DNA from: Mogibacterium sp.
GTDB taxonomy: Bacteria; Bacillota; Clostridia; Peptostreptococcales; Anaerovoracaceae
Assembly (NCBI GenBank): GCA_017510725.1
Contig: JAFWMD010000049.1
Coordinates: 82,478 to 146,477 of the forward strand
DNA length: 64,000 nucleotides
Direction of reading: 5' to 3'
The notes under the pieces are model-generated. The model saw only the letters and a program-made list of their open reading frames with translations, was not told where the DNA came from and made no database searches. The position numbers and the translations under genes were made by a program. Positions 30,309 through 49,662 of the stretch are shown piece after piece. Position 1 is the first letter of the stretch. The number at the start of each line of letters is the position of its first letter.

Positions 30309-30950
30309 TTATACTTCAGGGCTGTCACTTATCTGATCTTCATATATGTCTGTGTCATGCTCACCGGCAGCGATGTTTTCAAGCATCCATATTGTTGCGG
30401 TATTGATCAGGCTGCTTACATCCGGCTGATCCTCCGCGCCGTCTGGCAGGCTGATCTCTGAGATCAATGATCTATCCTTATCCCAGGCTCTTCCGCTTAT
30501 TTTTAAGCACTTGTTTATATCATGCTCCGGTGTAATGGATCCAAGCGCATATGTAAATGCTCCTACAACGAGGTCCAGCCTCGGCAGCAGTTCGATCGTA
30601 TATTTGCCCGGATCATCTGCTTTTGTTATGTTCTTATCGTCTATTACACACAGATAGTATGCATTCCTTATATATACAGTCAGTCCTGCGCTGTTTAATT
30701 CATTATCTATCCTGATTTGCTGCTCAGGTTCTATCATCATGTTCAGCAGGTGATGTGCAAGAGCTCCAAGGTGTATGTTCCCGTCAGTGGATTCGAGAAA
30801 CTCCGCTTCTGCCAGCTCCCTTATCACGCTTTCTTCCTCATCTTCTGTCAGGTCATTTAGTATGTCATTATCTATATCCTCGAACCCTATGAGTTCACCC
30901 TTTCCGTATTTCATCCTGCACAGTGCGATTGCTCTTTGCGATAAATTCAT
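30309..30950 (-). CDS. Acidic cytoplasmic protein, candidate effector chaperone/adaptor
   Basis: 213 aa with no TM or signal peptide, Asp/Glu-rich. First gene of the effector-lipoprotein unit. Good SD (GAGGTGA) upstream of ATG 30950. No family recognised. Confidence 0.6.
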   Translation of the reverse strand: MNLSQRAIALCRMKYGKGELIGFEDIDNDILNDLTEDEEESVIRELAEAEFLESTDGNIHLGALAHHLLNMMIEPEQQIRIDNELNSAGLTVYIRNAYYLCVIDDKNITKADDPGKYTIELLPRLDLVVGAFTYALGSITPEHDINKCLKISGRAWDKDRSLISEISLPDGAEDQPDVSSLINTATIWMLENIAAGEHDTDIYEDQISDSPEV

Positions 30951-33005: not shown

Positions 33006-33016
33006 TCAAACAAAAC

Positions 33017-33040: not shown

Positions 33041-33073
33041 ATCTTTTCACGTTTGTCAGTTGTGTATACAGCC

Positions 33074-35419
33074 TCATTCAATGTGTATGCTGTTCACGAT
33101 CTTCTCCTGCAGCAATTTATCCCGGTCTGTGTATATACCATTATCTTCATAATCTAATGTTACTCTGATCAGCGCCTTCTTTTTGTCAAGAGGGATATAT
33201 AGTGTATATATATGTCTGTCATTTTTGAGTACTCCTTTTCCAACAGTATCCAGCATGGTTCCTTCGCTGTACCAGCAATCTATACCATCGATTGTTATTT
33301 GTTCCTTGATTGCTCCTGTGTACCTGTCAGAATTATTCATTTTGAAAAGGTCGTAATCAGCTGATTTTTCCGCACCCTTTATATAGACATAGTCTTCATC
33401 TTTATACTCATCCACCACGATAGTCATGCTGCACCATTTACCGTAAGCCCATCTCTGAGAATCATATTCCTCATCCCAGCCTTTTGTCTCAAGGTCAGCC
33501 GGAAATGTGAGGCTGATTCCTGCTACATTCTCAGTAGTTTCCTTATACTCAGGCAATATGGCCTCCTTCCCGGGCTCAGCTGTTATCCTGATGCTTCTGA
33601 TCAACGCCTTGCAGACTTTTCTGTTCTCCTCATTGTCAGGGCCATAGAATGTGAACTCATCGATCCATTCTCCTCCGGCTACCGGGATCATAATGTGATA
33701 ATAGTAGGTATCAGAATCATAAATGAATTCCTGATAACAAGACTCCGTTCCGTCTATAACTATATTTCCCTGACTTAGAATATCATAACTTTTATTATCT
33801 TTATTAGGCGTATGGTATTCATTCACAAGTCCTTTAAGACCTTCTTTATAAAAAATCTCATAAGCAGATTCGTTCGAGTCCCGGTCCCAGCGGTATATAC
33901 AAAAAGTTGCTCCGTTTGTGGAATCATCCGAAGCCCAGTACCATCCCAGTGATTCATCTTCAGATTCGATATTACTTTCAGAGCTTTTCCATCCTGCAGG
34001 TAAATCAAAGCTAAGGCCGTGATCTCTTTGCGGCCACGTTGTCTCCCGCACCTCAGTCGTCTGTTCATCAGCAGTCTGTTCTTCTGCGGCCTTTTCTTCT
34101 GAGGACTGTTCTCCTGATACCATCTCTTCAGCCTTCTGCTGTCCGAGCATGTTGATCACGGATGCAATAAGAGTCAAGGCTACGGCTATAACTGCCAGAA
34201 CGACCCATTTAGGCTTTCTGTTATTCTTTTTCCGATCGCTGAATGCTTTGCTCCTGACTTTACCCCCTGAGCCATTACTGCCTGCATGCTCATCACCTGA
34301 TAAACCGGCTTCCGGCTCATCAGGACTACCTGCCAGCGTCTCGTCCATGACAGTAGGTTCCTGCTCCGTCGGGATATCAAACATACCTAGGGTTTCATCC
34401 AGACTGTCTTCTTTTACAAATACCCGGGATTCTTTTTCTTCAGCCGGTTTTGCAGTAGATACAGCCTGAGATGTTTCCTCAGCGCTTTTTACTTCTGCGG
34501 CTTTTGGCTTGCTGCTGTCTTTACAGCTATTCTCAAGAGCGTTGAGGTCATTGAGGAGTTCCCTCGCGGATTTATATCTGTCCTTTCTGTCATAGGCACA
34601 GGCTTTCAGTATGATGTCTTTCAGCCTGCGGCTTCCGTTGACAGGATCCGGAAGTGTTTCTCCTAAAAGCCTCCTGATATTTGCTGCCTGCACTTCTGAA
34701 GCCAGCGGCGTATCATCCGTTGGTACGAATGGATGCCTCCTTTTGTTGAGCAGCCAGTACATTACAAGCCCGAGCGAGTAAACATCTGCATCCATTCCGT
34801 ATTCTTTTCTGGCTTCTATTTCCGGAGCCATAAAAGTAGGCGTACCCTTGAGAGATGCCATTGTAGTATGGTCCATCTCCCTCGCTACGCCAAAATCTCC
34901 GAGCTTGTATACTCCTTCGTCTGAAACAAGGATGTTATCCGGTTTGATATCACGGTGAATTATGCCCTTTTCTTCACAGAAAACGAGCGCTGACGAAATA
35001 TCCTTTCCGAGCTTTATTACTTCTTCTTCCTTTAATTCCCTGCGCATCCTGTAGAGGGAGCTGAGCAGCTCCATCCTGATGCAGACATCCGAGCCCTCAT
35101 CATCTTCATGAGGCACTTCACGGCAGTCATCGCATCTCACTACGTTAGGGTTTTGCTTCAGCTGGGACATCAGCGCATATTCCCTGAAAATATCGCTGAT
35201 TATCGAACGGCACCATTTGCTGACATCATAATTTGAATTGCGCAGGGTCTCCAGCTCATCTTCACTGGATGGCACACTAATAATTTTGAGCGCAGCTTTC
35301 TCCGTAAACCCGTAAGCGTTGCGCTCAATCTCATATACGCTTCCGAACGATCCCTGTCCGATGCGCCTTATTATTTTCCAGTCTTTCCATGGATTGGTGA
35401 TATTGCTGAAATCTTTCAT
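33074..35419 (-). CDS. Hanks-type Ser/Thr protein kinase, single TM, large (~330 aa) unassigned ectodomain (K7)
   Basis: GQGSFGSVYE, ALKIISVPS, HRDIKPDNILV, DFGVAR, FMAPE. TM (WVVLAVIAVALTLIASVINML). Its start overlaps the PP2C stop by 4 nt. Confidence 0.9.
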   Translation of the reverse strand: MKDFSNITNPWKDWKIIRRIGQGSFGSVYEIERNAYGFTEKAALKIISVPSSEDELETLRNSNYDVSKWCRSIISDIFREYALMSQLKQNPNVVRCDDCREVPHEDDEGSDVCIRMELLSSLYRMRRELKEEEVIKLGKDISSALVFCEEKGIIHRDIKPDNILVSDEGVYKLGDFGVAREMDHTTMASLKGTPTFMAPEIEARKEYGMDADVYSLGLVMYWLLNKRRHPFVPTDDTPLASEVQAANIRRLLGETLPDPVNGSRRLKDIILKACAYDRKDRYKSARELLNDLNALENSCKDSSKPKAAEVKSAEETSQAVSTAKPAEEKESRVFVKEDSLDETLGMFDIPTEQEPTVMDETLAGSPDEPEAGLSGDEHAGSNGSGGKVRSKAFSDRKKNNRKPKWVVLAVIAVALTLIASVINMLGQQKAEEMVSGEQSSEEKAAEEQTADEQTTEVRETTWPQRDHGLSFDLPAGWKSSESNIESEDESLGWYWASDDSTNGATFCIYRWDRDSNESAYEIFYKEGLKGLVNEYHTPNKDNKSYDILSQGNIVIDGTESCYQEFIYDSDTYYYHIMIPVAGGEWIDEFTFYGPDNEENRKVCKALIRSIRITAEPGKEAILPEYKETTENVAGISLTFPADLETKGWDEEYDSQRWAYGKWCSMTIVVDEYKDEDYVYIKGAEKSADYDLFKMNNSDRYTGAIKEQITIDGIDCWYSEGTMLDTVGKGVLKNDRHIYTLYIPLDKKKALIRVTLDYEDNGIYTDRDKLLQEKIVNSIHIE

Positions 35420-36240
35420 TCTCCCTGATCAGCTGTAACTTTACAGATCAGTATCGTGACGTTGTCACGGCCGCCGTTCTTAAGAGCCTCGACCAGAAGC
35501 GCCTGTGCTTTTTCCTCTTCGTCCTCATCTCCCATGAGGATCTCAGTGATCTTCTCCGGTGTCACCATGTCCGTAAGTCCGTCGCTGCTAATGAGCAGTG
35601 TATCTCCGTCCTTCAAGCTGTCCCTGAATATTGCAGGGACGACTCTCATCTCTCTGCCGTCAATACCGAGGTAACGGGTCACATAAGGCTTTCTTCCCGT
35701 GATCCCATTGAGCTTCATGGTTTCTGCGTCAGTGTGGTCCACGGAGATCTGCTCGAGCTCTCCATCCCTGAGCCTGCTGCACTTGCTGTCTCCTGTATTG
35801 CAGCACCAGACATCTCCATCATAGAAGTAGCACCCCACCATCGTGGAGCCCATCTGATTTACAGCTCTCTCGCTGCTCTCGGCAAACACGGCATCATTGA
35901 GTATCAGAGTCATATCCGTGAGCATTTCCGCGACATCCGTATAGTCATCCGGAACATGCTCGTCGAGGAATTCATATGTCTTTATCGCTGCCGTATAAGA
36001 AGCTATTTCGCCATACTGACCCCCTCCCATGCCGTCAAAAACAGCAAAGAAACAACCGTCGTCTTCCCCGTGTCCCGAAACCCTGCGGGTACAGGTCAGC
36101 ACGTATTCAAGGCCGTTGTTATCAGAGTCCATGAGCTTGCCGTCAAAGTAGAAATTGTCTTCGTTGTTGGCACGGCGCAGGCCTCTGTTGCAGGCACATG
36201 CAGCTGAAATATTGTAATCACATGAGTTGAAAAGACTCAT
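35416..36240 (-). CDS. PP2C-family Ser/Thr phosphatase
   Basis: FAVFDGMGGGQYGEIAS, NTGDSKCSRL, LLISSDGLTDMV, GGRDNVTILICK. Confidence 0.9.
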   Translation of the reverse strand: MSLFNSCDYNISAACACNRGLRRANNEDNFYFDGKLMDSDNNGLEYVLTCTRRVSGHGEDDGCFFAVFDGMGGGQYGEIASYTAAIKTYEFLDEHVPDDYTDVAEMLTDMTLILNDAVFAESSERAVNQMGSTMVGCYFYDGDVWCCNTGDSKCSRLRDGELEQISVDHTDAETMKLNGITGRKPYVTRYLGIDGREMRVVPAIFRDSLKDGDTLLISSDGLTDMVTPEKITEILMGDEDEEEKAQALLVEALKNGGRDNVTILICKVTADQGE

Positions 36241-36265
36241 TTAATTAACTCTCCTTGTAAAAAAC

Positions 36266-38836
36266 TTATAATCTGACCGCTTCGAGAGCCTTACAGAGCT
36301 CTTCGATATCCTGATATCTTTCATCAGGGTCTATCCTCATACATTTCTCGATAACGGCCGCAAAATCAGATGATATATCATTATGATACTCGTGTGCAGG
36401 CTTTATGGCAAAGAAATTCAGACTCGGCCTTACCCCTGTCAGCAAATGATACAATGTTGCCCCTATCGCATATATGTCAGATCGAGGACCATACCCCTTT
36501 TGTATGCAGTCTATGAGGAATGACCTGTTATCAACAACCAGATCCAGCTGATCCTGTGGAAGTGTCTGTTCATCCGGAATCGCGGATGTTTCATCATCCC
36601 ACTCTGCCGCAACGGTTGCCTCATCCCAGTCTCCGGCTACTGTAGGTTCATCCCATTCCTCACTCCACATATCGCCGGATAAGGCCTTATCCAGATTGTT
36701 CTGTACCGGAGAAACAGCCGGCGGCGAAGTATTAGCGCTGTTGAGCAGACTTCGGCTGAGTTCGTCCGACAGTTTGCTGCTGAGATATCCTGATTCTACT
36801 TTGGCCTTGCTGAATGCCTCTACATCAACGCCTCGCTTCTGAAGCAGATTCAGGTAATTCTTTACAAATCCATACTGTTCGATTGGTGAGTAACCAGGGG
36901 TAGTACCTACCGACTTCACTGTCCCCTTGTCAATAATAGCCGAGATGTTGAAATCTATCAGGCATATATTCCCATCAGGTGTCAGCATTATGTTTCCGGG
37001 CTTGATATCGCTGTGTACGATAGCAGGCTGCATGTTGTGCAGGTATCTGACAGCGTCAGACAGCTGCTTTGCCCATATGAGGACGTATTTCTGTTCAAAC
37101 CTGCGCCCTTCCTTGAGATAGTCAGCAAAGCTCTTCCCAGGGACAAAGTCAGTAACAAGATACAGAGCCTGGTCGGCATCAAACACGTCATATATCTTAG
37201 GCAGATACATGTGCTTGACTCTCTTTAGCAATTCTACCTCGCGTTTGCCCGACACGGAGGTCTTCTGGTCGGCAGCTACCTTCTTCAGAACTACCTTTTC
37301 ATTCAGCCTTGTGTGCCATGCCGAGAACACCTCACCGAAGCCGCCCTTGCCTATCACATCAAGAACAGCATATGTATCATTGTAGATTATACTGTCCCCG
37401 ATACCTGCATGGATGACTCTGCTGATCCCGTTCTCACCAAAGCAGTCGTCAGGAACTTCAGAAGGATTGTCAGCTGCAAGAATAAACATTGCATTTCTGT
37501 CATCAGCTGTATTGCTGATAAAGTCCATCAGTTTCTGAGCTGTTTTTTTACCCGGATCACTTCCGAACAGCGAGTCAAAATGATTGATGAAGAAGCATGT
37601 CGGCTTATTGCTGTCGCATTTCAGTTCTATTTCACCACTGTCCGCCATCCGTCTCATGAGATCAGATGCATCCAGATACTCTATTTCCTGACTGAGCGAA
37701 GAGGAAAGATTCTCTACTACATACTGTTTATTCATTTCAGCATTGCCGTAGAGCAGTATCGTTTTTACCGGTTTTTTCCCCGTAAATATGACTTTGCTGT
37801 AGCTCTTTTCGCTGGAAAGTGTGCCGGCAATTGCTTCGATTTCTTCAGAGAAGTTCCTTTCTACATCTATCGCAGAAATGATCAGCTGGCCTGTGTTTGC
37901 TTCAAGATCCGCCTGTGACATTGCATTTGAGACCTTGAATGATGAGAACGGTCTTGTGATCACATATGCCAGGATGGTCTGTATCAGGACCTGAACGACT
38001 GAAATATTCACAGTAAGTCCGTCGACAAGGTTCAGCAGCGGTCCCGAGCCTGTCAGCAGCGCTGCCATAAGAGCAAATATCACTCCTTCACGAATATCAA
38101 GAGGGATCCTGGTGATCTTCACATTTTCGGATATCAGCAGTCTGCCGGCTATTATGGCAATGATCAGGTTAACTGCAATGACTACTATCAGCGGCAGCAG
38201 CATGCTTCCGGCCTGAGTGGCTCCGAACCCCAGATCAATACCTGCGATAACATTCTCCAGGTTTGATTTCATGCTCATGCCTTGCTGATTCCAAATGCTT
38301 AGCGGCTCCTCGTTAGCTATGTAGATGCCTGACACAAATCCCATAATTGAAAAAACTACCGCCGCTGTATATTTTGGGGAGCTGCTCATCTTATGTCCGC
38401 AAAAAACTATCAGGGTAAACAGCAGATATGCTGCTGCAGGTGAGCCTTCCTTCGAAGTCATCATACATAATGGGATCAGCATAAGTATCAGGCAGTGGAC
38501 CGACTTTGATATGACTCCTTCAAAAATCATAAGAACCGCAGCCACTGTAACAAGAATCGGAGCGGTCCCGCCTATCGTTATGAACAATGCGGCTCCCGAC
38601 AAGGCAACACCCAGTCCAGGGGATAACAGTGTCAGGGCAGCACATCCAAGCGATATAAGAATTACCAGCTGCCCCTCTACCAGGCCCGGCAGAGGTACTT
38701 CTCCAAGCTTGCTGTAAAAACTCAGCATCCTGAAAACGCCTGCACCGCATACTGCGGCGCAGACTATTTTCATGATGATCTCATATTTAACTTTTTTCAG
38801 GAAGAAATTATCCCATCTGAGTCTCAGATTATCCAT
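36266..38836 (-). CDS. Three-part fusion: polytopic membrane domain, degenerate AAA+ (SpoVK/CbxX/EccA-like) module, atypical Hanks kinase (K8)
   Basis: aa ~20-297 form multiple TM helices. aa ~345-465: VIFTGKKPVKTILLYGNAEMNKQYV ... CFFINHFDSLFG ... AQKLMDFISNTADDRNAMFILAADNP has the AAA+ layout with the Walker A/B residues lost. aa ~488-856: GKGGFGEVFS, VVLKKV, HSDIKPGNIML, IDFNIS, TPGYSPIE, SDIYAIGATLYHLLTG, with a WDE-repeat insert. Confidence 0.8.
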   Translation of the reverse strand: MDNLRLRWDNFFLKKVKYEIIMKIVCAAVCGAGVFRMLSFYSKLGEVPLPGLVEGQLVILISLGCAALTLLSPGLGVALSGAALFITIGGTAPILVTVAAVLMIFEGVISKSVHCLILMLIPLCMMTSKEGSPAAAYLLFTLIVFCGHKMSSSPKYTAAVVFSIMGFVSGIYIANEEPLSIWNQQGMSMKSNLENVIAGIDLGFGATQAGSMLLPLIVVIAVNLIIAIIAGRLLISENVKITRIPLDIREGVIFALMAALLTGSGPLLNLVDGLTVNISVVQVLIQTILAYVITRPFSSFKVSNAMSQADLEANTGQLIISAIDVERNFSEEIEAIAGTLSSEKSYSKVIFTGKKPVKTILLYGNAEMNKQYVVENLSSSLSQEIEYLDASDLMRRMADSGEIELKCDSNKPTCFFINHFDSLFGSDPGKKTAQKLMDFISNTADDRNAMFILAADNPSEVPDDCFGENGISRVIHAGIGDSIIYNDTYAVLDVIGKGGFGEVFSAWHTRLNEKVVLKKVAADQKTSVSGKREVELLKRVKHMYLPKIYDVFDADQALYLVTDFVPGKSFADYLKEGRRFEQKYVLIWAKQLSDAVRYLHNMQPAIVHSDIKPGNIMLTPDGNICLIDFNISAIIDKGTVKSVGTTPGYSPIEQYGFVKNYLNLLQKRGVDVEAFSKAKVESGYLSSKLSDELSRSLLNSANTSPPAVSPVQNNLDKALSGDMWSEEWDEPTVAGDWDEATVAAEWDDETSAIPDEQTLPQDQLDLVVDNRSFLIDCIQKGYGPRSDIYAIGATLYHLLTGVRPSLNFFAIKPAHEYHNDISSDFAAVIEKCMRIDPDERYQDIEELCKALEAVRL

Positions 38837-38854
38837 AATTGCTCGTCCTAAGAC

Positions 38855-39355
38855 TTACTTCACCCTTATCTCGATACCCTCTTCTTCCATGCGGTTTACC
38901 CAGTTCATAATATTGCCGCTCATGCTGTCAATAACCATGCGTCTTTTACCTTTAACATAAATCTCATATCCGCCCCGGTCATCAACGCAGAAGTCGATAT
39001 CATGTATATCAATAGTTTTTCTGAATATCCAGAATCTGGAGGATGTCACCTTATCGCCATTAACTGTAACCTCCCAGAAGCCTTTAACCGGCAGGAGGAT
39101 AACGAAAATCCCAAGCAGGAACAGTCCTCCGAAGATAGCTATAAGATAGCCTTCCAAAGCACCGGCAATACTCGCCCCGATAATACAGAACAGGAAAAAT
39201 GCTGCTCCGATAATGCCTATTACCGAAATGGCTCTTCCGGGTCTCATATCAAATTGTTGGGTCGAATCGGTATTAATTGCATTTGATTTTCCGGACAACC
39301 AGCTCAATAATGCCGGAACAACAAGTGCAATTATAAGTATTGTTATTAAGCTCAT
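38855..39355 (-). CDS. Membrane protein, candidate immunity protein for the Rhs C-terminal toxin
   Basis: 166 aa with three hydrophobic helices (ITILIIALVVPALLSWL; VIGIIGAAFFLFCIIGASIAGAL; LIAIFGGLFLLGIFVILL) followed by a soluble tail. It starts 16 nt after the Rhs stop, on the same strand. Confidence 0.65.
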   Translation of the reverse strand: MSLITILIIALVVPALLSWLSGKSNAINTDSTQQFDMRPGRAISVIGIIGAAFFLFCIIGASIAGALEGYLIAIFGGLFLLGIFVILLPVKGFWEVTVNGDKVTSSRFWIFRKTIDIHDIDFCVDDRGGYEIYVKGKRRMVIDSMSGNIMNWVNRMEEEGIEIRVK

Positions 39356-39370
39356 TATTTCACCTAGTCA

Positions 39371-42300
39371 TTATGCAATTCGAAGTAAGCATTTTGTAAA
39401 ACCACCGGCTAATTTTTTGATATATGCACTTGGTTGTATCTTTTTTATGAATTCTTTTACAACTGCACCTTTTATATGCTGCCCGAAAGTATGCAGTAAT
39501 TCAGGCCCCCATGTTTTCGGGCTGCACACTTTAATAACACCAGCCAAATTACTTAACTGTCCCTCATAGAAGTCCTTCGCAGGATTTGCTGTCAGATCCT
39601 GGTACCATTTAGGCATAAAGGTCTTAAGCTTTTTCCCGATGGCTCCAACCGCGGCTCCAATAGCTGCATCGACTGCACCGCAGGCGATGGACTCTCCCCA
39701 GCCTTTTTTATCTACGAACTTTGCTTCGGCAAATCCTCCGACAAATCCTCCGGCTGCTCCAGCTAAAACAGGATTTCCGGTTAAGCCCAAAACACCACCT
39801 TCAACAGCTCCGCCAAGTGCAGATGTTCCAACTTTACCCCAATTTACATTCTTCAGGTTTACATTGCTTAATCCGCCTTCCTTGATCTGTCCGATAAGCT
39901 GCTTGCCGAGCTCCATGCCTCCGCCAACAACTGCTCCTCCAATTGCGCCGATGGCTCCTGCAGCTAAATGTGCAAGGAATCTGCCCTCAGGGTCATAGTA
40001 TGTAAAAGGCATATTCGCGCAGTAAAGATACGGATTCAGAGTTATCGGCCTGACGATATCGCCCTTAACAGGGTCCTGTCCGGCAAAGCGTCCATGCTCA
40101 GGCATGTATTCTCTGGCCTGAGCAAAATACATGTCTGCTGTCGGATCATTCCTGTATCCTATGTATCTCAGTGGCTGGATGCTGTTCTCTGGTTCGTAAA
40201 GAGATGTACCGAATTCATCGTATCCGTAAGTCTCCGCATTGCTTCCATCCATGCCGAGAAGTCTTATCGGGCTGCCTTTATCATCATTTATAACATTGTA
40301 ATCGGTTTCACCTTTAAGTGTTATAAATGTGCCGTCAAAGATATATGCTTCCGACTTACCGTTAATGCTTCTCTCAAACAGGTTGTTGAAGTACTTAGTC
40401 ATGTCGACTGTGTACTTGATCTTCCTGTCTGAATCCGCGCCTCCCAGAATCGTTTCTTCGATACGGTGTCCTAATCCGTTATATGTATAGGATGCTTTGT
40501 TTAAGCCGTTAGCTGCCTCTGCCAGTTTTCCTGCAGGATCATAAACATAGGAGTTGCAGGTCTTGCCATCAATGGCTCTCTCGATGACATTACCTCTCTT
40601 ATCATATCTGAAAGTTTCTTTTACCGGGCCGGCTGCTTCCAGCAGGCGGTCCATAGCATCATATGTATAACTGGTGCTGACACCACCGGATACCAACGAT
40701 TTTCTGTTTCCAAACGCATCATACTCATATGAGCGAAGCGCTGCCCCATTTTTCTTTACAGAAGCAAGTCTTCCGGTCGGATCGTAGCCAAACTCGAACA
40801 GTCCGCTTTCTTCAGGCAGTCCTTCTCTGAAGCGCTCAATCGATGTTCTCTCTCCGTTTGAATCGTAAGTGATACGGGAAGAATCCAGCAATTTTCCGTT
40901 CTGCATGCTTTTGATCTCAGTAAGAAGGCCTCTGTTATCATATGCATACGATGTTGCCAGCCCTGTTCCGACAGTCTTGCTTATAAGATAACCGTAATCG
41001 TCATATCCATAGCGTACATCTGTATCTCCCTCTTTCAGAGATGTCAGTCTCATTGCTTTATCATAACCATATGATACGACTCTGCCGTCAGGATGTTTTA
41101 CGCTGAGCCTCTCACCGGCCTTGCCATATGTATACTCTGCGGATCTGTTATCCGGATATATAACTTTAGTTATTCTGCCGAGGATGTCACTTTCAACTTT
41201 GGTTATTCCAGTCCAGTCACTGACCTCTGAAAGCTTGCCAAGAGCATCATGCTGCATCATGATCTCTCTGCCGTCATCATACTTTACAGAATTGAGTTCT
41301 CCGTTACGGTCATATCCATATTGTGTAAGGTAGCCGTCTTTATCTATTGCCTGAGTAAGCTCTCCTCTGCCATTGTACACAAACTTTTCTGTATACCCGA
41401 GAGGATCCGTAACAGATACGATGTTTCCGCAGAGGTCTCTGACACACTCTGTCTTGTGGATCTCGCCTTCTCCAATCTTTTTGATTTCGACAAGCATGTC
41501 GAGTGCATCATAAACGTATTCAGTTCTGCATCCGAGTTCATCGGTAACGCTGCTCAGTTTACCTGTCAGTGTGTATTCATATACATTCTTATTGCCATTG
41601 CAGTCGCAGGATGATGTCATATTGCCTACTGCATCGTATGTATATGTATTATTTGCACCATTATTGTCTCTGATTGCAATTACGTTGCCTACCGCGTCGT
41701 ATTCATATCTGACAGTATAGCCTCTGTTTGTGCCCTGAGATTCGAGTCTTCCGTTTATATCATAGGTAAAATACTGTTCCCTGCCATCCGGATATGCGAT
41801 TTTTGATGGCTTTCTGATCGAATCATATTCGATTGTAGTTACTCTGCCTGCCTCATCGATAACTTTTGAAACATCACCGTCAGGGGTATATGCATATTTC
41901 CTTGTTTCTCCAAGTGCATTCTTTTCGCAGATGAGCTGATCGGCGTCATCATATTCCAGATGCACTTCTCCGCCGTTTGCATCTTTGATATGTACAAGGT
42001 TGTTATTTGCATCATACTCATATTCAGTTTCATTACCTTCAGGATCCTTGACATAAATCAGATTGTCAAGATTATCGTACCTGAATTCTGCCACAGCTCC
42101 TTCAGGATCAATGCTGAATTTCAGATTGTTGTTACCGTCGTACTCAAAAGTGCTCTCATTACCCATAGGATCGATTTCCTTGGTAACATTGCCGTTTTCA
42201 TCATACTCGAAGTGAACGGTTGCACCATTTGGAAGCTTATGGGATGAGACATTCCACATGTCGTCATACTCTTCTTCCGTTATTCGGCCCAACGGATCCG

Positions 42301-44107
42301 TTATTCTGCTTACAAAGCCCAGCTTGTTGTACGAGAGTCGTGTAGTTGCCCCGTTAAAGTCGGTAAATTCTTCTATACTATTAATTTCATTAAATTTGAA
42401 ACGTCTCGAGTTTCCTGCTGCATCGGTGAAGCGTGTCAGATTTCCATATCTGTCATACTCATAATTGCTGGTATTGTTTGTGGCATCTGTACTGCTAATA
42501 ATTCTGTTGAGTTCATCATATTCATAAGATGTCCTGACACCCTGAGGATCCTTGAACCAGTTTAAGTTGCCTTTTTCGTCATAGCTCAGTTCAACAGTTC
42601 TTCCGCTTGGAAGTCTCATCTCAGTCGGAAGCCCTTTTTCATTATATTTATATGAGACCTTTCTTCCGAGTGCATCTATAGCCTCCAGCAGATTTCCCTT
42701 GCTGTCATAAGCATTTTTGATCTTACGGACACCATTAACTGAAATCGTAACTGGTTTGTTATGCTTCTCGTATGTCATATTAATGACTACACCATCTGGC
42801 CTTACTATTTTACTTATATTGCCACGGTTGTCATACTGATACTTGATCTCATTCTCATTGAGGTCCTTTTCGGATGTCACGAGGTTTTTGTCATTGTATT
42901 CAAATGACTCTGTACCATTTGTATATACATTATCGGTATTCCTTAACAGCTCATCATGGAAGTGATAGCTCTCACTGCCATTCTTCTCTGTTATGGTCGT
43001 AGCAGCATTCTCCTTGTCATATGTATATCTCATTTCTGAGCCATCAGGGAAAAATTGCCTTGATACTCTTCCCTCATCATCATATTCGTTGTGAACAACT
43101 GTTACGCCTCTTGAATCTACTACATCACTTAAGCAGCCTGAACTATCATAATCAAATTTAACGACTCTGTCGCCGCTGGTAACAGATGTCAGATTCCTCC
43201 CATTATACTTATAAAGTATGCTTCTGCCTGAGTGGTCTGTTACAGATTCTATATGATCCGGGTTTTCCTCAGAATACGTAAACTCAAATGAATCGCCATT
43301 ATCTCTGATAACTTTGATAAGTTTTCCTGCTTCATATTCGAGATCATATCCGAATCCGTTGGCATTTTCTGCTCTTAGAAGCGTTCCCTGCTCATCAAAA
43401 ATGGACAGGTCATTGTCGATCGTTGTGTAATGATATTTCCCATCGATAACTTCAAGTGTAGCTGTACCACCCAGAGCAACATAATTTTTATTGTCTTTCG
43501 TAAAGACTTCCTCCGAGCCGTCGCCAAGTCTTACAGCGGCACCTTGTTCATTGATACTGATCTGCATCTCGTAATTATGAGTCCAGCCCAGACCAAATGC
43601 ACCGTTATTTGTATCACTTGAGTTATAGAAACGTGTCAGTGTGAACGGTGTTTCTGTTCCCATCTGAAGATCATCAATTTCCAGTATAAAGTTACCTGAT
43701 TCTACTGCAACAGGATCTCCTACATACTTATTCCACCATTTTTTACCTTTACCCCAAATATCCTGAATAGTTGCTCCGCCTATAACCAGCCCGCCACCTA
43801 TGATCTTGGCCAGGTCGCCAAGACTCATTTTTTTATTGCGCTGATTCTTGATAGCTATTTCAGTTATCTCATAATGCGATGCTATTGCCTGAAGATTGGT
43901 GCGGATCTTGCTTGTAGCTCCCTGTATCACTTCAAGCTTTTCATTACTCTTTTTCAGGGTGCTCTTGATCTGGCCGGTGCTGTTTCCGATATTGACATTA
44001 TTCATTACACTTGTAATTTCCATGCTGGCCTTTTTCAGCCCCAGCCATGAGGTGCGGATATCGCCCGTCGATCCTTTAAGCTTCTTCGTTCTGACTTTGA
44101 ATTCCAT
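39371..44107 (-). CDS. Rhs/YD-repeat polymorphic toxin with T7SS-type N-terminal helical domain and glycine-zipper C-terminal toxin domain
   Basis: Dozens of YD repeats (YxYDxxGN/R..., e.g. YKYNEKGLPT, YEYDELNRII, FEYDENGNVT). Core-end motif PFTYYDPEGRF. The last ~201 aa (39374-39976) are rich in GxxxG runs (AAGAIGAIGGAVVGGG, GGAVEGGVLGLTG, AGAAGGFVGGFA, AAIGAAVGAIG). The N-terminal ~100 aa are helical and resemble 29311..30297. Confidence 0.9.
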   Translation of the reverse strand: MEFKVRTKKLKGSTGDIRTSWLGLKKASMEITSVMNNVNIGNSTGQIKSTLKKSNEKLEVIQGATSKIRTNLQAIASHYEITEIAIKNQRNKKMSLGDLAKIIGGGLVIGGATIQDIWGKGKKWWNKYVGDPVAVESGNFILEIDDLQMGTETPFTLTRFYNSSDTNNGAFGLGWTHNYEMQISINEQGAAVRLGDGSEEVFTKDNKNYVALGGTATLEVIDGKYHYTTIDNDLSIFDEQGTLLRAENANGFGYDLEYEAGKLIKVIRDNGDSFEFTYSEENPDHIESVTDHSGRSILYKYNGRNLTSVTSGDRVVKFDYDSSGCLSDVVDSRGVTVVHNEYDDEGRVSRQFFPDGSEMRYTYDKENAATTITEKNGSESYHFHDELLRNTDNVYTNGTESFEYNDKNLVTSEKDLNENEIKYQYDNRGNISKIVRPDGVVINMTYEKHNKPVTISVNGVRKIKNAYDSKGNLLEAIDALGRKVSYKYNEKGLPTEMRLPSGRTVELSYDEKGNLNWFKDPQGVRTSYEYDELNRIISSTDATNNTSNYEYDRYGNLTRFTDAAGNSRRFKFNEINSIEEFTDFNGATTRLSYNKLGFVSRITDPLGRITEEEYDDMWNVSSHKLPNGATVHFEYDENGNVTKEIDPMGNESTFEYDGNNNLKFSIDPEGAVAEFRYDNLDNLIYVKDPEGNETEYEYDANNNLVHIKDANGGEVHLEYDDADQLICEKNALGETRKYAYTPDGDVSKVIDEAGRVTTIEYDSIRKPSKIAYPDGREQYFTYDINGRLESQGTNRGYTVRYEYDAVGNVIAIRDNNGANNTYTYDAVGNMTSSCDCNGNKNVYEYTLTGKLSSVTDELGCRTEYVYDALDMLVEIKKIGEGEIHKTECVRDLCGNIVSVTDPLGYTEKFVYNGRGELTQAIDKDGYLTQYGYDRNGELNSVKYDDGREIMMQHDALGKLSEVSDWTGITKVESDILGRITKVIYPDNRSAEYTYGKAGERLSVKHPDGRVVSYGYDKAMRLTSLKEGDTDVRYGYDDYGYLISKTVGTGLATSYAYDNRGLLTEIKSMQNGKLLDSSRITYDSNGERTSIERFREGLPEESGLFEFGYDPTGRLASVKKNGAALRSYEYDAFGNRKSLVSGGVSTSYTYDAMDRLLEAAGPVKETFRYDKRGNVIERAIDGKTCNSYVYDPAGKLAEAANGLNKASYTYNGLGHRIEETILGGADSDRKIKYTVDMTKYFNNLFERSINGKSEAYIFDGTFITLKGETDYNVINDDKGSPIRLLGMDGSNAETYGYDEFGTSLYEPENSIQPLRYIGYRNDPTADMYFAQAREYMPEHGRFAGQDPVKGDIVRPITLNPYLYCANMPFTYYDPEGRFLAHLAAGAIGAIGGAVVGGGMELGKQLIGQIKEGGLSNVNLKNVNWGKVGTSALGGAVEGGVLGLTGNPVLAGAAGGFVGGFAEAKFVDKKGWGESIACGAVDAAIGAAVGAIGKKLKTFMPKWYQDLTANPAKDFYEGQLSNLAGVIKVCSPKTWGPELLHTFGQHIKGAVVKEFIKKIQPSAYIKKLAGGFTKCLLRIA

Positions 44108-44134
44108 AGTTGCCGTCCTCTCGGATTATACAGT

Positions 44135-45733
44135 TCAGATATAAGTTATTTCTTCGTTTGCTACACTGATCAAATCTCCGGAGATCAGTCTGATACCATT
44201 GCCTGTGACCCTCTGACCGTTAAGGTAGGTTCCGTTGATCGAGCCCATGTCATGAATGAAATATGTTCCCTTGCGGTTCTCGATCATTGCATGCATTTTT
44301 GCAACATACTCATTACCTTCAATACAGATATCTGCATCGCGGCTCCTGCCGATGGTCATGATATTCTTTTTAAGTTCGTATACCGCGCCTGTTCGTCTTA
44401 CGATTGCTCTTGGTACATTTTCATTATTGCCATTATCCGGCTCCGGTCGAAGAACAGCTGCAGGCATTACCTTATCAGGTGCAGCCTTTACCGGTGCCGC
44501 TTTTGCCGGTGTCGCTTTCACAGGTGCAGCCTTCTCAGGTTTTTTAGCTGCCGCCTTTTGCTTTTTTTCTTTTACCGGTTTCTGTTCTGCCGGCTTGTTC
44601 TTCTTTCCTTTTTTTTGAGGTGCTGCCCCCGGATTGTCTGCTTCATATCTCCTGTTCCATATCACAAGTGTGACAAGCTTGAATACCAGGAAGGCAATGA
44701 GCGCTCCAAGTGCAATTATGAGGTATAGCAGCTTTGATGGCTTGAGTTCGGAAGTATCAAGTGTGGTCTGGAGCTTACTGAAAGCACCCTGAAGGGCTTT
44801 GCGGTTATATCGCGATTCTCCCATGACTTTGATAGCATTCTGTATCGCATCTTTAAAATCGTCCTTATATTCTTTTTTGACCTTCTTGTAAGTTCCGATG
44901 CTCTGATCGCATAATTTATAGAGTTTGCCATACAGAGCGTCTTTGTCTTTGGTCTGATGTTGTATGCCTGCACTGTCAAGAAGTTTATCTGCTTCCTGTA
45001 TCAGAAGTGCGCAGCTGCCATCATCCCCTGAAGCTTTTGGATTGTTAATACCGATTACGTAGCCATGCTCATCTACGAGAGGGCCTCCATCAAGGCCTCC
45101 GCTGATGTCTGCAGTATGGCTTATATATGTTGCGCTGTCTTTTTTGAGCGCCATGGACTTTATGGTCCCTGTATTCACTTTTACATCTGAGGCACTGAAC
45201 TCTGTCCCCGAGGCAGCTTCGGAATTAAAACCTAGAGCTTTGACCTCTGCACCCTCTGACAGTGTATCGCCTTCTTCGTCATATTCCGTTATTCTGAGCG
45301 GCAATGCCGTCTTGCCGTTCAAACCTCCCGCACTGATTATGCAGAAGTCCTGCTCGACGCTGTATGATTCTACCAATGCGTCAACAGCTGTATCGTTCTT
45401 GACTATTACATGGATGGCCGCGTCCTGTCCATGATTGACATTATGCCATGTAGTGACTATGTATACGCCACCGTTTCCGGTATCACCTACAACAAATCCG
45501 CTGAAGGTATGATCAGCTTTGAACTTTCCATTTGTATCGTTGATTCCGGTCACTATCCGTACTACCCCGGTTGCAGCATCTACATCAGAAACCGTCTGTG
45601 GCTCTGCCAGTCCGTTCATCTCACTGTGGGAAGATGCCGCAAGGGCAGCCTGCGGCATGATGATCATTATCAGCGCGATCATAAACGCAAGGCTGCCCGT
45701 TATTCTTTTTCTGATTCTTTTTGTTTCGATCAT
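44135..45733 (-). CDS. Bitopic protein: extracytoplasmic trypsin-like (probably inactive) domain, TM, Lys/Ala/Pro linker, cytoplasmic FHA domain
   Basis: N-terminal anchor/signal (LAFMIALIMIIMPQAALA). His (VTTWHNV) and Asp (EQDFCII) are present, but the GxSGGP serine box reads GGLDGGPL (Asp codon GAT at 45091..45089). Second TM (LLYLIIALGALIAFLVFKLVTLVIW). C-terminal FHA: MTIGRSRD...AKMHAMI...GSINGTYLNG. Confidence 0.8.
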   Translation of the reverse strand: MIETKRIRKRITGSLAFMIALIMIIMPQAALAASSHSEMNGLAEPQTVSDVDAATGVVRIVTGINDTNGKFKADHTFSGFVVGDTGNGGVYIVTTWHNVNHGQDAAIHVIVKNDTAVDALVESYSVEQDFCIISAGGLNGKTALPLRITEYDEEGDTLSEGAEVKALGFNSEAASGTEFSASDVKVNTGTIKSMALKKDSATYISHTADISGGLDGGPLVDEHGYVIGINNPKASGDDGSCALLIQEADKLLDSAGIQHQTKDKDALYGKLYKLCDQSIGTYKKVKKEYKDDFKDAIQNAIKVMGESRYNRKALQGAFSKLQTTLDTSELKPSKLLYLIIALGALIAFLVFKLVTLVIWNRRYEADNPGAAPQKKGKKNKPAEQKPVKEKKQKAAAKKPEKAAPVKATPAKAAPVKAAPDKVMPAAVLRPEPDNGNNENVPRAIVRRTGAVYELKKNIMTIGRSRDADICIEGNEYVAKMHAMIENRKGTYFIHDMGSINGTYLNGQRVTGNGIRLISGDLISVANEEITYI

Positions 45734-45791
45734 AATTGCGGTTTTGGGTACTTATTGTTGAATAAGTATTTGGTTTTTCTTTTGCTTTGTC

Positions 45792-46109
45792 TTATGCGAA
45801 GATCTCTGAATTCAGTGAAGAAGCTGTCTGAGTTGCTTCATTTTCTGCTCTCTCATACTCTGCTGCCATCTCATTGAGGTCCTTTACATGTTCCTGAATC
45901 ATTTTATCGATCTTCTGGATCTCATCCTGGAGGCCATTGAACTTGTTAGCATATGCAGTTGCTGCATCGCCCGACCATACGGAGCCTGAAAGCTGCCCGA
46001 CTGTCTGTGTCATAGTGTTTGTAGCGTTCTTGATCTGTGCGCTTGTGTTGGAAAATTCACTTGCTGCTGCTTTGAGTCTAGAGGTTTCAACCTTAATTGT
46101 ATTTGCCAT
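45792..46109 (-). CDS. WXG100-family (EsxA-like) protein 5 of 5
   Basis: 105 aa helical hairpin; W-x-G in SVWSGDAATAYANKF. Confidence 0.88.
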   Translation of the reverse strand: MANTIKVETSRLKAAASEFSNTSAQIKNATNTMTQTVGQLSGSVWSGDAATAYANKFNGLQDEIQKIDKMIQEHVKDLNEMAAEYERAENEATQTASSLNSEIFA

Positions 46110-46200
46110 TTTTCTGTCTCCTTTTCTATTTCAAGACTGTGAGGTCTGTTGTTTCCTGAAAGTTTTTTATTTAAGTCCCTATCCGGTTTTAAGTTCGGTT

Positions 46201-46500
46201 TTATACGGTTCTTGCATTTGCTGTGCTTACGTTCTTGTTCTCAGCCACATCATACTTGTCTGCAATTGTATCAAGTGCTGATGCATACTGATCTATAGCT
46301 GCACAGAACTCTGTCATTTTAGCAATGTCTGTTGAGAATGCGTTTCTGAACGAGTCACGTGCTTCACCTTCCCACATTCCGCTGAGTGAATTCTCCTGTG
46401 CTCTCAAATTTTCGATCTGGTTTCTGACATTGTTGTTCTGACTTCTCAGATCTGCTGCCTTGTCTCTGAGCTGCTGCGATGTTACCTGAATAAGTGCCAT
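46201..46500 (-). CDS. WXG100-family protein 4 of 5
   Basis: 99 aa; W-x-G in SGMWEGEARDSF. Confidence 0.88.
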   Translation of the reverse strand: MALIQVTSQQLRDKAADLRSQNNNVRNQIENLRAQENSLSGMWEGEARDSFRNAFSTDIAKMTEFCAAIDQYASALDTIADKYDVAENKNVSTANARTV

Positions 46501-46568
46501 TTGTTTTTCCTCCTGTTAATTAGTTTTAGATTTATGGATTAAGTTAAATTTTATATCGTTTTTTGGTG

Positions 46569-46925
46569 TTAGCCCCTGCGGCCGCCTCCGCCGCCTCCGC
46601 CGCCTCCACCGCCGCTGTAAGTTCTCATGTCGGCGATTCTCTTGGCTTCCATCTCTGCATCGTAGATGGTCTTGGCGTTTTTCCTTATAGCTGCTGCTGT
46701 CTTTTCCAGGTTGCTTGCTATTTTATCAAGATCTTCGGAGACCATGCCCATCTTATTGGTGAACTTTGACGCGTTGTCTCCTGTCCAGGCGGATGCTACG
46801 TCGCTTCTGCAGCTGCTGAAGCGATTACTTTCCTTTCTAAGGGTTCTTGCTGCATCTTCAAGTCTGCTTGCCTGGTTTTTGGACTTCTGGAAGTCCATGT
46901 TTATCTGAAAACTACTTTTAGCCAT
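46569..46925 (-). CDS. WXG100-like protein 3 of 5 with poly-glycine C-terminal tail
   Basis: 118 aa; W-x-G in ASAWTGDNASKF. C-terminus YSGGGGGGGGGGGRRG is encoded by (GCCGCCTCC)x3-type repeats at 46581-46616. Confidence 0.8.
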   Translation of the reverse strand: MAKSSFQINMDFQKSKNQASRLEDAARTLRKESNRFSSCRSDVASAWTGDNASKFTNKMGMVSEDLDKIASNLEKTAAAIRKNAKTIYDAEMEAKRIADMRTYSGGGGGGGGGGGRRG

Positions 46926-46937
46926 TTCTGCCTCCTA

Positions 46938-47249
46938 TCAGAATATATCATCCGGTAAACTGTTGCCTACTGCTGCTGCTTCCTGTTCTGCTGCTTCATA
47001 CACGCCTGCTTCCATCTGAAGTTTTACAGGATTTTCATTCAGTCTCTTGAGAACCTTTTCTACATCCGGCTCTATATCCCTGAAGATTTTGATGTGTGCA
47101 TCGCTCGCCTCTCCTTCCCAGTAGGTTTTGGTGTTCTTTATCAGCTGGCAGATGCTTTTCCAGTGTCTCTCTATGTTTTTTACGTCATTTCTCACCAGGT
47201 TTGACTGATCTTTCATGACGTTGGTGTCTACTCTAAGATTGATGCTCAT
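46938..47249 (-). CDS. WXG100-family protein 2 of 5
   Basis: 103 aa; W-x-G in KTYWEGEASDAH. The C-terminal ...NSLPDDIF resembles ...SSLNSEIFA of 45792..46109. Confidence 0.85.
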   Translation of the reverse strand: MSINLRVDTNVMKDQSNLVRNDVKNIERHWKSICQLIKNTKTYWEGEASDAHIKIFRDIEPDVEKVLKRLNENPVKLQMEAGVYEAAEQEAAAVGNSLPDDIF

Positions 47250-47259
47250 GTCTATCCCC

Positions 47260-47565
47260 CTATCTCACATGTATCTGATTGACAAGGTCCCCGACCTTAC
47301 TTTCGCAGTTATTATATTTGGTTCTGGCGTTTTCTTCGAAACGGTTGATTCCCTCGAGGGTTTTGACCACTTCCTCCATCGCCTTGATGTCTGATTCAAA
47401 ATTGATCTTGAATGCCTCACTGGCCGGGCCGTCCCACATTCCGTCAAGTACTCTGTTGTGGTTCCTCAGATCGGTAATCGCCTTCTGGATCGCCTTGATA
47501 TGATCTCCGAATTCCTTCAGGTCTGTATCAAGTCTGTTTGTGTTGACTTTAATTAAATCTGCCAT
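47260..47565 (-). CDS. WXG100-family protein 1 of 5
   Basis: 101 aa; W-x-G in DGMWDGPASEAF. Confidence 0.88.
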   Translation of the reverse strand: MADLIKVNTNRLDTDLKEFGDHIKAIQKAITDLRNHNRVLDGMWDGPASEAFKINFESDIKAMEEVVKTLEGINRFEENARTKYNNCESKVGDLVNQIHVR

Positions 47566-48036: not shown

Positions 48037-48285
48037 CTATACCAGGATGAGTCTGTCGGCATCTCTCACGCCGCTTTCGTACAGTGTTCGGTCAGCTGAG
48101 AGTGGCATTCTTTTGTCTGTGTAGTACAGAACAAATCCGTCATCGCCCGGTTTGAGCTCGCTCTTGGTCCTCCTCGCGATCATCTCCGTCACCTCAAGTA
48201 TGACGACTTCAAGGTCCGCATTCTCATCGAGCATAAAGTCGAAACTCTCGTCCAACGCAGGCATATATATGTCTACCATTATCAT
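48037..48285 (-). CDS. esaB: YukD/EsaB-like ubiquitin-fold T7SS protein
   Basis: 82 aa; MIMVDIYMPALDESFDFMLDENADLEVVI...YYTDKRMPLSADRTLYESGVRDADRLILV fits the YukD beta-grasp pattern. It has a 4-nt overlap with the upstream gene and lies in the essC/WXG100 context. Confidence 0.8.
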   Translation of the reverse strand: MIMVDIYMPALDESFDFMLDENADLEVVILEVTEMIARRTKSELKPGDDGFVLYYTDKRMPLSADRTLYESGVRDADRLILV

Positions 48286-48950: not shown

Positions 48951-49662
48951 GCAGGTACTCCTTTACTGACGCTTTGTATGATCTTGACAGAGGCACTATT
49001 ATGTTGTTTTCCAGGTATACCGCATTATCTGAAAGCTTGATTCGCTCAAGAAATCCGGAGTTGAACATGAAGCTGCGGTGGCTCTGCACGAATGTCTGCG
49101 GCAGATCCTTTCTCACATTATCCAGAGTATCATACTTGCTGTATTCCCTGTCCCGGAGTCTGAAATAAACTTTCTTGTTTCGTGCCTCTATATAATATAT
49201 CTGATTATACGGTACGACTGTTTTGCCGTCCCTGTTTTCTATAACTATGGAATTTCCTTCATCCGGTACATCCTTTTTACGGAAATAAGATGAAAGGAAT
49301 TCGCGTATGACCGAACGCATCGCTTCTTCCTGATATGGTCGCAGCAGAAGTGAGCATGCCCGTATGTCCGGCGTGAGATATTTCATGGGTGAAACAGTCC
49401 CGTCGGCTACAAGCATGATATCAGCGTCTGTCCTGCCGGATCTCACCGTTCTGCTGAGATCTACATCCCCATCATCTTTGATTTCAAGCACGGAGAGATC
49501 AAACGGATCATCCTTGCCGAGGTATTTATATAACCCGCCGGCATCCAGAAACCCCTTGCAGGAAAGGCTGTCGTCAGACATGTAAGCGACCATGTCTCTT
49601 GCATGCCTGGCAACACGCTCCATTTCCTTTTTATCACGGTCATAAATCAGCAGATCTATCAT
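48913..49662 (-). CDS. LytTR-family DNA-binding protein with degenerate receiver-like N-terminal domain
   Basis: C-terminal LytTR pattern: IVIENRDGKTVVPYNQIYYIEARNKKVYFRLRDREYSKYDTLDNVRKDLP.TFVQSHRSFMFNSGFLERI. The N-terminus (MIDLLIYDRDKKE...) resembles a receiver, but the acidic pocket reads YDRD. It overlaps the essC stop by 4 nt. Confidence 0.8.
   Translation of the reverse strand: MIDLLIYDRDKKEMERVARHARDMVAYMSDDSLSCKGFLDAGGLYKYLGKDDPFDLSVLEIKDDGDVDLSRTVRSGRTDADIMLVADGTVSPMKYLTPDIRACSLLLRPYQEEAMRSVIREFLSSYFRKKDVPDEGNSIVIENRDGKTVVPYNQIYYIEARNKKVYFRLRDREYSKYDTLDNVRKDLPQTFVQSHRSFMFNSGFLERIKLSDNAVYLENNIIVPLSRSYKASVKEYLRGISGSRNIDTE

Follow-up and report, generated by a model that had tools for sequence, protein, structure and literature searches.

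What does the glycine-rich end of a large Rhs protein do when its gene lies among type VII secretion system (T7SS) genes, and what is the small membrane protein encoded directly behind it? The question is raised by a 64,000-nt stretch of DNA from Mogibacterium sp. (NCBI GenBank assembly GCA_017510725.1, contig JAFWMD010000049.1, positions 82,478 to 146,477 of the forward strand), hereafter called the window, in which coordinates are counted from the first letter. A reading of the letters alone, the original prediction, had proposed that positions 38855-44107 encode a Rhs/YD-repeat toxin with a T7SS-type N-terminus and a glycine-zipper C-terminal domain, paired with an immunity candidate with three transmembrane (TM) helices. 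Taken as a whole, this observation was confirmed. The C-terminal tail of the Rhs protein was found to be homologous to the C-terminal toxin of the Pseudomonas aeruginosa effector Tse5 (Tse5-CT), and the gene behind it belongs to the Pfam family DUF6560. The best explanation is that the locus is a toxin-immunity pair for interbacterial competition, belonging to a kinase- and FHA-rich T7SS cluster of a ruminant-gut Lachnospiraceae-like bacterium.

The Rhs shell and its C-terminal tail

Both open reading frames (ORFs) of the pair were present as claimed, the Rhs/YD-repeat polymorphic toxin gene of 1578 aa at 39371..44107 and the gene of 166 aa at 38855..39355, each on the minus strand, marked (-) below. 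Pfam searches with the Rhs protein returned RHS_repeat (PF05593) 16 times (E = 4.3e-110) as well as DUF6531 and TEN_YD-shell, and NCBIfam searches returned RHS_core, YD_repeat_2x, Rhs_assc_core and, again 16 times, TIGR01643. DUF6531, the N-terminal plug domain in Tse5 (PMC10684867), covers residues 130-202 (43502..43720 (-); PF20148, E = 4.6e-19), and the Rhs-associated core, which corresponds to the C-terminal plug of the shell, covers residues 1296-1375 (39983..40222 (-); TIGR03696, E = 2.8e-13). As predicted, the core ends with PFTYYDPEGRF (residues 1367-1377) and is followed by a tail of 201 aa (39374..39976 (-)). The end of the core is laid out as ..GRFAGQDPVKG..(22 residues)..YYDPEGRF, within which D1345 and D1372 are candidate aspartyl autoprotease residues; both are invariant between the window protein and its 50%-identical orthologue P0001. 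In Tse5, the aspartates D1141 and D1164 of a DPxG-x19-DPxG arrangement carry out the cleavage that frees the toxin within the shell (PMC10684867), and by analogy a cut after R1376 would be expected in the window protein. Relatives of this protein bear at least four mutually unrelated tips.

The first 120 residues of the tail contain 25% Gly and 17% Ala, and the last 81 are Lys-rich and ordinary in their Gly and Ala content. The tail was divided on this basis into a Gly/Ala-rich four-helix module (residues 1378-1502; 39602..39976 (-)), of which residues 1379-1451 are homologous to Tse5-CT, and a Lys-rich part with the end ..LKC(L/W/Y)L.. (residues 1503-1578; 39374..39601 (-)), for which no family or PDB match was obtained. 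Searches with the isolated tail yielded no Pfam or NCBIfam match, enzymatic families included. The sole significant match among PDB chains was Tse5-CT (8cp6_C; phmmer E = 1e-5), with tail residues 4-74 aligned to chain residues 11-87; the homology as a whole spans tail residues 2-74 and Tse5-CT residues 9-88, which share the blocks G-x-ELG/QTG-KQ-x-x-GQ-x-K and NW-x-x-VG-x-SA-x-x-G-x-V-x-x-G. The local alignment score was 112, compared with 31 +/- 5 in composition-preserving shuffles (z of 14-16), and none of 4000 shuffles scored as high. Because of the shared blocks and the outcome of the shuffles, we regard the match as homology and not as low complexity. A profile built from seven tails retrieved Tse5-CT once more and nothing else from the PDB, with an E-value (6e-5) weaker than that of the single sequence. 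The Tse5-type tip comes straight after the DPxG cleavage motif of the Rhs core. When 1.84 billion representatives were searched exhaustively, only six relatives of the tail were recovered, each a Rhs tip or an orphan tip fragment that matches within tail residues 2-122. The tail profile also picked out the diverged Gly-rich tips of L010 and L011, two other Rhs proteins from Lachnospiraceae (E about 3e-9, Z = 1e6).

Tse5-CT enters lipid layers spontaneously, makes ion-selective pores and causes cells to depolarise (PMC9637101; PMC10684867). From its sequence, the window tail is predicted to be a pore-forming toxin of the same kind. The original prediction had likewise placed the tail at the membrane, and the family and PDB sequence searches support it, since they returned no enzyme family and matched a pore former. 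In the AlphaFold2 (AF2) model of the tail, helices span residues 2-34, 46-66, 69-88 and 93-120, with a predicted local distance difference test score (pLDDT) of about 80 over residues 1-125 and nothing confident over residues 128-201 (pLDDT below 50). Foldseek searches with this model returned only non-significant matches to four-TM proteins of the Tim17 family and NDUFA11 (E of at least 0.03), and we take this modelled likeness to be that of a Gly-rich helical membrane bundle and not a sign of homology.

Two observations count against a pore-forming tail. The Gly/Ala strings that had been quoted as evidence of a tail dominated by GxxxG and AxxxG runs are present, but the first 120 residues contain six [GAS]xxxGxxxG motifs where composition-preserving shuffles give 3.0 +/- 1.7 (p about 0.09); the periodicity of the glycine zipper does not significantly exceed that expected from composition, and the zipper look is largely compositional. 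In addition, homology to Tse5-CT accounts for about 75 of the 201 tail residues, and the last 75-80 are without a homologue of known function and fold poorly in AF2. One could argue from this that the Gly/Ala-rich first 120 residues are a mere insertion or translocation module and that toxicity or targeting resides in the Lys-rich last 80, as would suit a tail of 201 aa that exceeds the 149 aa of Tse5-CT and aligns with it over residues 2-74 only, a C-terminal part that is conserved in outline over the subfamily (..LKCxL.. included) and a natural variant, L004, in which a frameshift replaces exactly that end. The same segment, however, has no family, PDB or fold match, is the most divergent among orthologues (16-35% identity) and, at 80 aa, is short for an enzyme, and a membrane-embedded immunity candidate suits a membrane-acting toxin. 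We consider this alternative unlikely and prefer the reading in which the Tse5-CT-like module itself forms pores.

Several features of the tip ends were recorded in passing. The C-terminal ..LKCxL.. Cys motif is common to the window tail, P0001, P0002, P0003 and L031. As a rule, a Cys occurs 3-7 residues from the C-terminus in the Gly-rich tips (window positions 39374-39400, L027, L029, L028, L031, L010, L011, and L012), with nearly all following this pattern and with ends such as ..FTKCLLRIA, ..LLKCWLV, ..YLKCLIAA, ..MLKCYLDA, ..FLKCDLGVA, ..TVCAAA and ..TVCAV; in the non-Gly tip of L026 the Cys lies further in (..RARCAAGHGGGGGFR). The motif looks CaaX-like in appearance. In L004 (positions 3-490), a metagenome variant of window positions 39356-39870, an out-of-frame deletion right after ..HTFGQH replaces the last ~40 tail residues, and the ORF runs to 4 nt before the start codon of the immunity gene; this could be a naturally occurring allele with loss of function or an altered tip. 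Finally, the Rhs ORF of L013 (7254-13178; 1974 aa) continues in frame past a 'TIWMWKGDYLNLGAG' tip, and the lipoprotein-like stretch that it enters is similar to the immunity-like genes that in L015 and L016 lie separately downstream; the ORF may represent either a toxin-immunity fusion or an assembly error.

The DUF6560 protein encoded downstream

The downstream gene adjoins the Rhs gene as predicted, but across a gap of 15 nt and not the 16 nt that had been claimed, and an AGGTGA ribosome-binding site was read within this gap (39360..39365 (-)). Its product matched DUF6560 (PF20197) at E = 7.8e-9, the score of 36.4 bits exceeding the Pfam gathering cutoff of 27.8. Hydropathy and AF2 placed its three TM helices at residues 3-24, 41-66 and 70-87, and in the AF2 model (three sequences; mean pLDDT 68) these are followed by a beta-rich domain and a C-terminal helix. 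The best Foldseek matches of this model were to PH/PTB folds, all sub-threshold (E of 0.02-0.05), and the PH-like fold of the C-terminal soluble domain is suggestive only. A full-text search of a collection of papers for the name DUF6560 found none that mentions it.

A DUF6560 homologue was found directly 3' of a related tail in three other loci, namely L027 (the P0001 locus; 40% identity, E = 1e-36), L029 (the P0002 locus; E = 3e-31) and L031 (55% identity), with gaps of 12-16 nt between tail and DUF6560 gene. No homologue was detected by tblastn among the examined loci with different or more diverged tips (e.g., L010-L016, L026), and loci with other tips carry other downstream genes, such as those for lipoprotein-like proteins after the 'TIWMWKGDYLNLGAG' tip. 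Orthologues share 54-62% identity in the core, 33-43% in the tail and 40-55% in the DUF6560 protein, and the tail and its partner both diverge faster than the carrier. Tse5-CT is neutralised by a membrane immunity protein, Tsi5 (PMC9637101; PMC10684867), and immunity to channel-forming effectors usually comes from polytopic membrane proteins (PMC12744356). The three-TM immunity candidate of the original prediction has fared well, with its three hydrophobic segments, its recurrence beside related tails and its absence beside other tips, and the DUF6560 protein is probably the immunity protein of the producer.

The distribution of DUF6560 also speaks against this assignment. Tblastn found no DUF6560 gene downstream of the more distant tails of the same superfamily in L010 and L011. 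The pairing is confined to the closest subfamily, and all four paired loci may represent one orthologous clade, so that co-inheritance alone could explain the linkage and is hard to separate from functional coupling. On these grounds the DUF6560 protein might instead be an accessory factor, for example in Rhs release or secretion, or a membrane protein kept in place by synteny, with immunity encoded elsewhere or provided by the shell alone. We judge this to be quite unlikely. The gene lies in close linkage with the toxin gene, a short gap away, and has its own ribosome-binding site; the protein diverges about as much as the tail and faster than the core; it is of the polytopic type expected for a channel-forming effector; and two other loci resemble orphan immunity or tip arrangements. 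In the first of these, a short ruminant metagenome contig (L032:3-886), two DUF6560 genes occur in tandem, the second encoding a protein of 213 aa with an extra C-terminal TM segment, which looks like an immunity-gene array; in the second, L029, the DUF6560 gene adjoins an apparent orphan Rhs tip fragment.

A metagenome scan with a two-sequence tail alignment yielded only one further distinct locus. This contig, from a different organism (L033:3590-4740, equal to L034:4-890), encodes a Rhs C-terminal fragment with a Tse5-CT-like tip (..INWGKVGVSAAAGAITGG..), followed by an overlapping gene for an 82-aa protein with two TM segments, an arrangement like that of Tsi5. Because of this locus, the combination of a Tse5-type tip and an adjacent membrane protein holds across lineages, with the immunity family differing.

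The region had also been described, by eye, as more A+T-rich than its flanks. The GC content of 38855-44107 is 0.429, compared with 0.465 and 0.458 in the flanks and 0.471 in the window, and of the 46 genes in the window (mean 0.523, standard deviation 0.068) the Rhs gene has the lowest GC content at third codon positions (0.409); the bias is real but only mild. Other Rhs genes (L027, L031, L010, and L011) likewise lie 1-4 points of GC under their own upstream flanks. Recent horizontal transfer is not favoured as the origin of the dip, which amounts to about 1.5 standard deviations and recurs in these same four Rhs genes.

The N-terminus and the surrounding T7SS cluster

Residues 1-90 of the Rhs protein (43838..44107 (-)) are predicted to form a WXG100-like helical hairpin, the presumed T7SS targeting domain, with the motif Y79-x-x-T-E83-x-x-I and no WxG. 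Hydropathy analysis showed no hydrophobic signal-like segment at the N-terminus, in agreement with the claim that the 1578-aa protein has no signal peptide. Residues 1-135 alone had no match in Pfam, NCBIfam, PDB chains or the other window ORFs. A genome scan identified related Rhs genes in metagenome-assembled genomes of Lachnospiraceae and Clostridiales, several with the same type of N-terminus, and seven related Rhs N-termini were aligned (A3). Y79 and E83 are invariant inside the YxxTExxI motif across these seven, four of which gave weak matches to Pfam WXG100 (PF06013). When A3 was compared by hhalign with the aligned five WXG100 proteins of the window (A4), the probability was 95.4% (E = 1.9e-8) over residues 2-86. 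From these sequence profiles, the Rhs N-terminus appears to be homologous to WXG100, at the profile level only.

The Rhs gene sits beside genes for an EssC-type ATPase, WXG100 proteins and a YukD-like protein, and this location inside a T7SS cluster, together with the WXG100-like hairpin, sustains the T7SS-type N-terminus of the original prediction. The same N-terminus had been said to resemble that of an HExxH effector encoded at 29311..30297 (-). This resemblance holds at the profile level, because the HExxH protein matches the A3 profile (hhalign probability 92%, E = 5.9e-7), but not pairwise, as comparison of the Rhs N-terminus with all window ORFs returned nothing significant (E about 2 for the HExxH protein). 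A WXG100-like N-terminal domain without WxG that is common to at least two effectors of one cluster would be a fresh point.

Export by the T7SS has weaknesses of its own. By itself, the window N-terminus is matched by neither a WXG100 nor an LXG model, and it has no WxG/LxG turn motif, the turn reading ..NIGNSTGQ.. without W or L at this place in the window protein or in P0001. Moreover, passage of a folded cocoon of ~175 kDa through a T7SS is unexplained for any T7SS-linked Rhs protein. No T7SS is known to export such cocoons, and the Rhs protein may not be a T7SS substrate at all and could leave the cell by lysis or through an unrecognised exporter, its location in the cluster being coincidental or regulatory; other Gram-positive Rhs proteins can use Sec (PMC10327511), as WapA does. 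This seems very unlikely to us in view of the missing signal peptide, the profile-level homology to WXG100 with its conserved YxxxE motif, the occurrence of this type of N-terminal domain on another putative effector of the cluster, a gene order with WXG100 genes that is kept in three species-level relatives, and the recurrent linkage of Rhs and T7SS genes described in the literature (PMC10327511; PMC11217815). We retain T7SS-dependent export as the preferred route.

The secretion genes themselves lie upstream of the Rhs gene. Immediately adjoining it is a gene for a membrane protein with trypsin-like and FHA domains (44135..45733 (-); Pfam), which is also found directly 5' of the Rhs gene in L001-L003, L027 and L031. 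Five tandem WXG100 genes follow (45792..47565 (-); Pfam E of 1e-15 to 8e-8), the products of which are candidate co-secretion partners or core EsxA-like proteins, and then an ORF for a small ubiquitin-like protein of 82 aa resembling YukD/EsaB (48037..48285 (-)), recognised by a weak PF08817 match in the identical contig L001, and the gene for an EssC/TsxC-like T7SS ATPase (49659..54698 (-); FtsK_SpoIIIE E = 3.5e-47, FHA E = 1.9e-13, both Pfam). Among the relatives in which the Rhs/WXG100 gene order is kept, L027 and L031 share the window arrangement. On the other side lie four Ser/Thr kinase genes (26884..28677, 31134..33005, 33074..35419, and 36266..38836) and a PP2C phosphatase gene (35416..36240). 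Three more proteins with FHA domains add to these, and signalling genes are unusually numerous in the cluster (26884-38836 and 55868-57594); T7SS variants rich in kinases, phosphatases and FHA domains, with Rhs proteins among their candidate substrates, have been described by Garrett et al. (PMC11217815).

Other members of the cluster also drew our attention. The kinase encoded at 36266..38836 has a long hydrophobic N-terminal region and an AAA-like segment ahead of its kinase domain. A gene at 48913-49662 (-), with the EssC-like ATPase gene on one side and the YukD/WXG100 genes on the other, encodes a LytTR-domain protein that may be a transcriptional regulator of the cluster. The WXG100 protein encoded at 46569-46925 (-) has a C-terminal run of eleven glycines (..YSGGGGGGGGGGGRRG), and in the Rhs proteins of L010 and L012 the N-terminal linker is likewise Gly/Asn-rich. 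The HExxH protein, of 328 aa with its motif at residue 250, gave metallopeptidase-like matches in Pfam that were all sub-threshold, and is likely a second T7SS effector; its gene is flanked by small unassigned ORFs (28837..29271 and 30309..30950 (-)), which could be an immunity or partner gene.

Identical or near-identical copies of the window locus occur in ruminant and bovine gut metagenomes. In three bovine metatranscriptomes, short contigs of low depth (word depth 3-7) matched within window positions 36000-47000, covering parts of the DUF6560 gene, the tail, the Rhs core, a kinase gene and a WXG100 gene and spanning the junction between the upstream FHA-trypsin gene and the start of the Rhs gene (43959-44192). 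These contigs hint weakly that the locus is expressed; DNA carry-over is also possible.

Proposed mechanism and comparison with known systems

A membrane-depolarising T7SS effector neutralised by a membrane immunity protein, as originally proposed, is supported by the Tse5-CT match, the WXG100-like N-terminus and the co-occurrence with DUF6560. The domain architecture, homologies, gene linkage and joint occurrence of toxin and candidate immunity genes are observed, and from them we infer autocleavage, T7SS-dependent export, pore formation and protection. In the mechanism that we propose, the Rhs protein would fold into a cocoon made up of the DUF6531 N-terminal plug, the YD-repeat shell and the Rhs core as C-terminal plug. 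Cutting after DPEGR by D1345 and D1372 would then leave the hydrophobic C-terminal fragment of ~200 aa enclosed in the shell, where it would be harmless to the cytoplasm of the producer; the shell of Tse5 is known to encapsulate its toxin (PMC9637101; PMC10684867; PMC12744356). The WXG100-like hairpin, which probably forms a bundle with some of the WXG100 proteins from the five neighbouring genes, would bring the cocoon to the EssC-type ATPase for export. Once released in a target cell, the tail could insert its Gly/Ala-rich helices into the cytoplasmic membrane, in the manner of its homologue Tse5-CT, and form ion-conducting pores, with loss of the target's membrane potential. In the producer membrane, the putatively co-transcribed DUF6560 protein would block insertion or assembly of the toxin. 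On balance, we think it probable that this chain, from cocoon and autocleavage through T7SS export and membrane pores to DUF6560 immunity, operates as a whole.

T7SS-linked Rhs toxins have been described, as have pore formers carried by Rhs proteins (Tse5) and T7SS toxins with glycine zippers and membrane immunity (EsxX, TelE and TspA), and the window locus combines these three known types. Its fresh points are that DUF6560 gains a candidate function and that a Tse5-type tip, extended by a further C-terminal module, occurs in Bacillota. It is conceivable, though we hold the idea only tentatively, that both points apply together, DUF6560 being an unrecognised family of anti-Tse5-type immunity proteins and the Bacillota toxin having gained a C-terminal module of ~80 aa. 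With its near-terminal Cys in ..LKCxL.., such a module might, for instance, engage a receptor or lipids or undergo disulfide or acyl modification, and in this way suit the toxin to Gram-positive targets, and the DUF6560 protein may differ from Tsi5 in its build, with three TM helices and a cytoplasmic PH-like domain. Should the proposed mechanism hold, the uncharacterised family DUF6560 would receive its first candidate function, pore-former immunity; the Tse5-CT family, hitherto studied in a Pseudomonas type VI secretion system (T6SS) effector, would extend to T7SS-linked Rhs proteins of gut Bacillota; and one membrane-active tip would have been reused across phyla and secretion systems. The locus adds a clear example to the T7SS-associated Rhs toxins, still a purely genomic class. 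The pair would be a tractable case for how a Rhs cocoon of this size exits the cell via a type VII system, and it points to interbacterial antagonism among ruminant-gut Lachnospiraceae.

Among the closest known systems are Tse5 (PA2684, RhsP1) and Tsi5 of the P. aeruginosa T6SS. Tse5 shares with the window protein the DUF6531 plug, the YD shell, the aspartyl-protease plug, a hydrophobic Gly/Ala-rich C-terminal fragment and a membrane protein encoded immediately downstream. The two differ in the N-terminus, which in Tse5 is PAAR-like and belongs to the T6SS whereas that of the Bacillota protein is WXG100-like and belongs to a T7SS cluster; in the spacing of the catalytic aspartates, 23 residues in Tse5 and 27 in the window protein; and in the tail, which carries an additional C-terminal part. 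By description, Tsi5 has two predicted TM regions, in contrast to the three TM helices and PH-like domain of the 166-aa DUF6560 protein. WapA of Bacillus subtilis and Streptococcus suis resembles the window locus in having a YD-repeat carrier, a variable C-terminal toxin and a downstream immunity gene. Unlike WapA, which is equipped with a Sec signal peptide and with domains that bind the cell wall, the window Rhs protein has neither.

The architecture of the carrier and its neighbourhood is closely paralleled by that of LrhA and LrhI from the Listeria T7SSb locus essC8 (Bowran 2023, PMC10327511). LrhA, at ~1600 aa, has DUF6531 and 16 RHS repeats like the window protein, and in its locus as in the Rhs loci of T7SSc and T7SSd (Garrett 2024, PMC11217815), genes for an EssC-type ATPase and for small WXG100 or helical partners adjoin and a membrane-anchored immunity candidate is encoded downstream. 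None of these Rhs proteins is known from experiment to be secreted. LrhA and its kin differ from the window protein in the C-terminal toxin and the immunity family, LrhI consisting of a single TM helix and an extracellular domain. The window cluster, rich in kinases, PPM phosphatase and FHA domains, is unlike the LrhA locus type and resembles T7SSe/j, a likeness and not a classification.

In its proposed activity, the window toxin is comparable to the depolarising glycine-zipper toxins of the T7SSb, EsxX and TspA of Staphylococcus aureus and TelE of Streptococcus gallolyticus, which have Gly-rich membrane-active C-termini (PMC12744356). These toxins are countered by polytopic membrane immunity proteins, such as ExiCD and TsaI (PMC12744356), and the window candidate is a membrane protein as well. 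Compared by description, EsxX, TelE and TspA are LXG-domain proteins without the Rhs cocoon of the window protein. EsxX needs, in addition, a cytoplasmic immunity pair, ExiAB, which a Rhs shell would make unnecessary.

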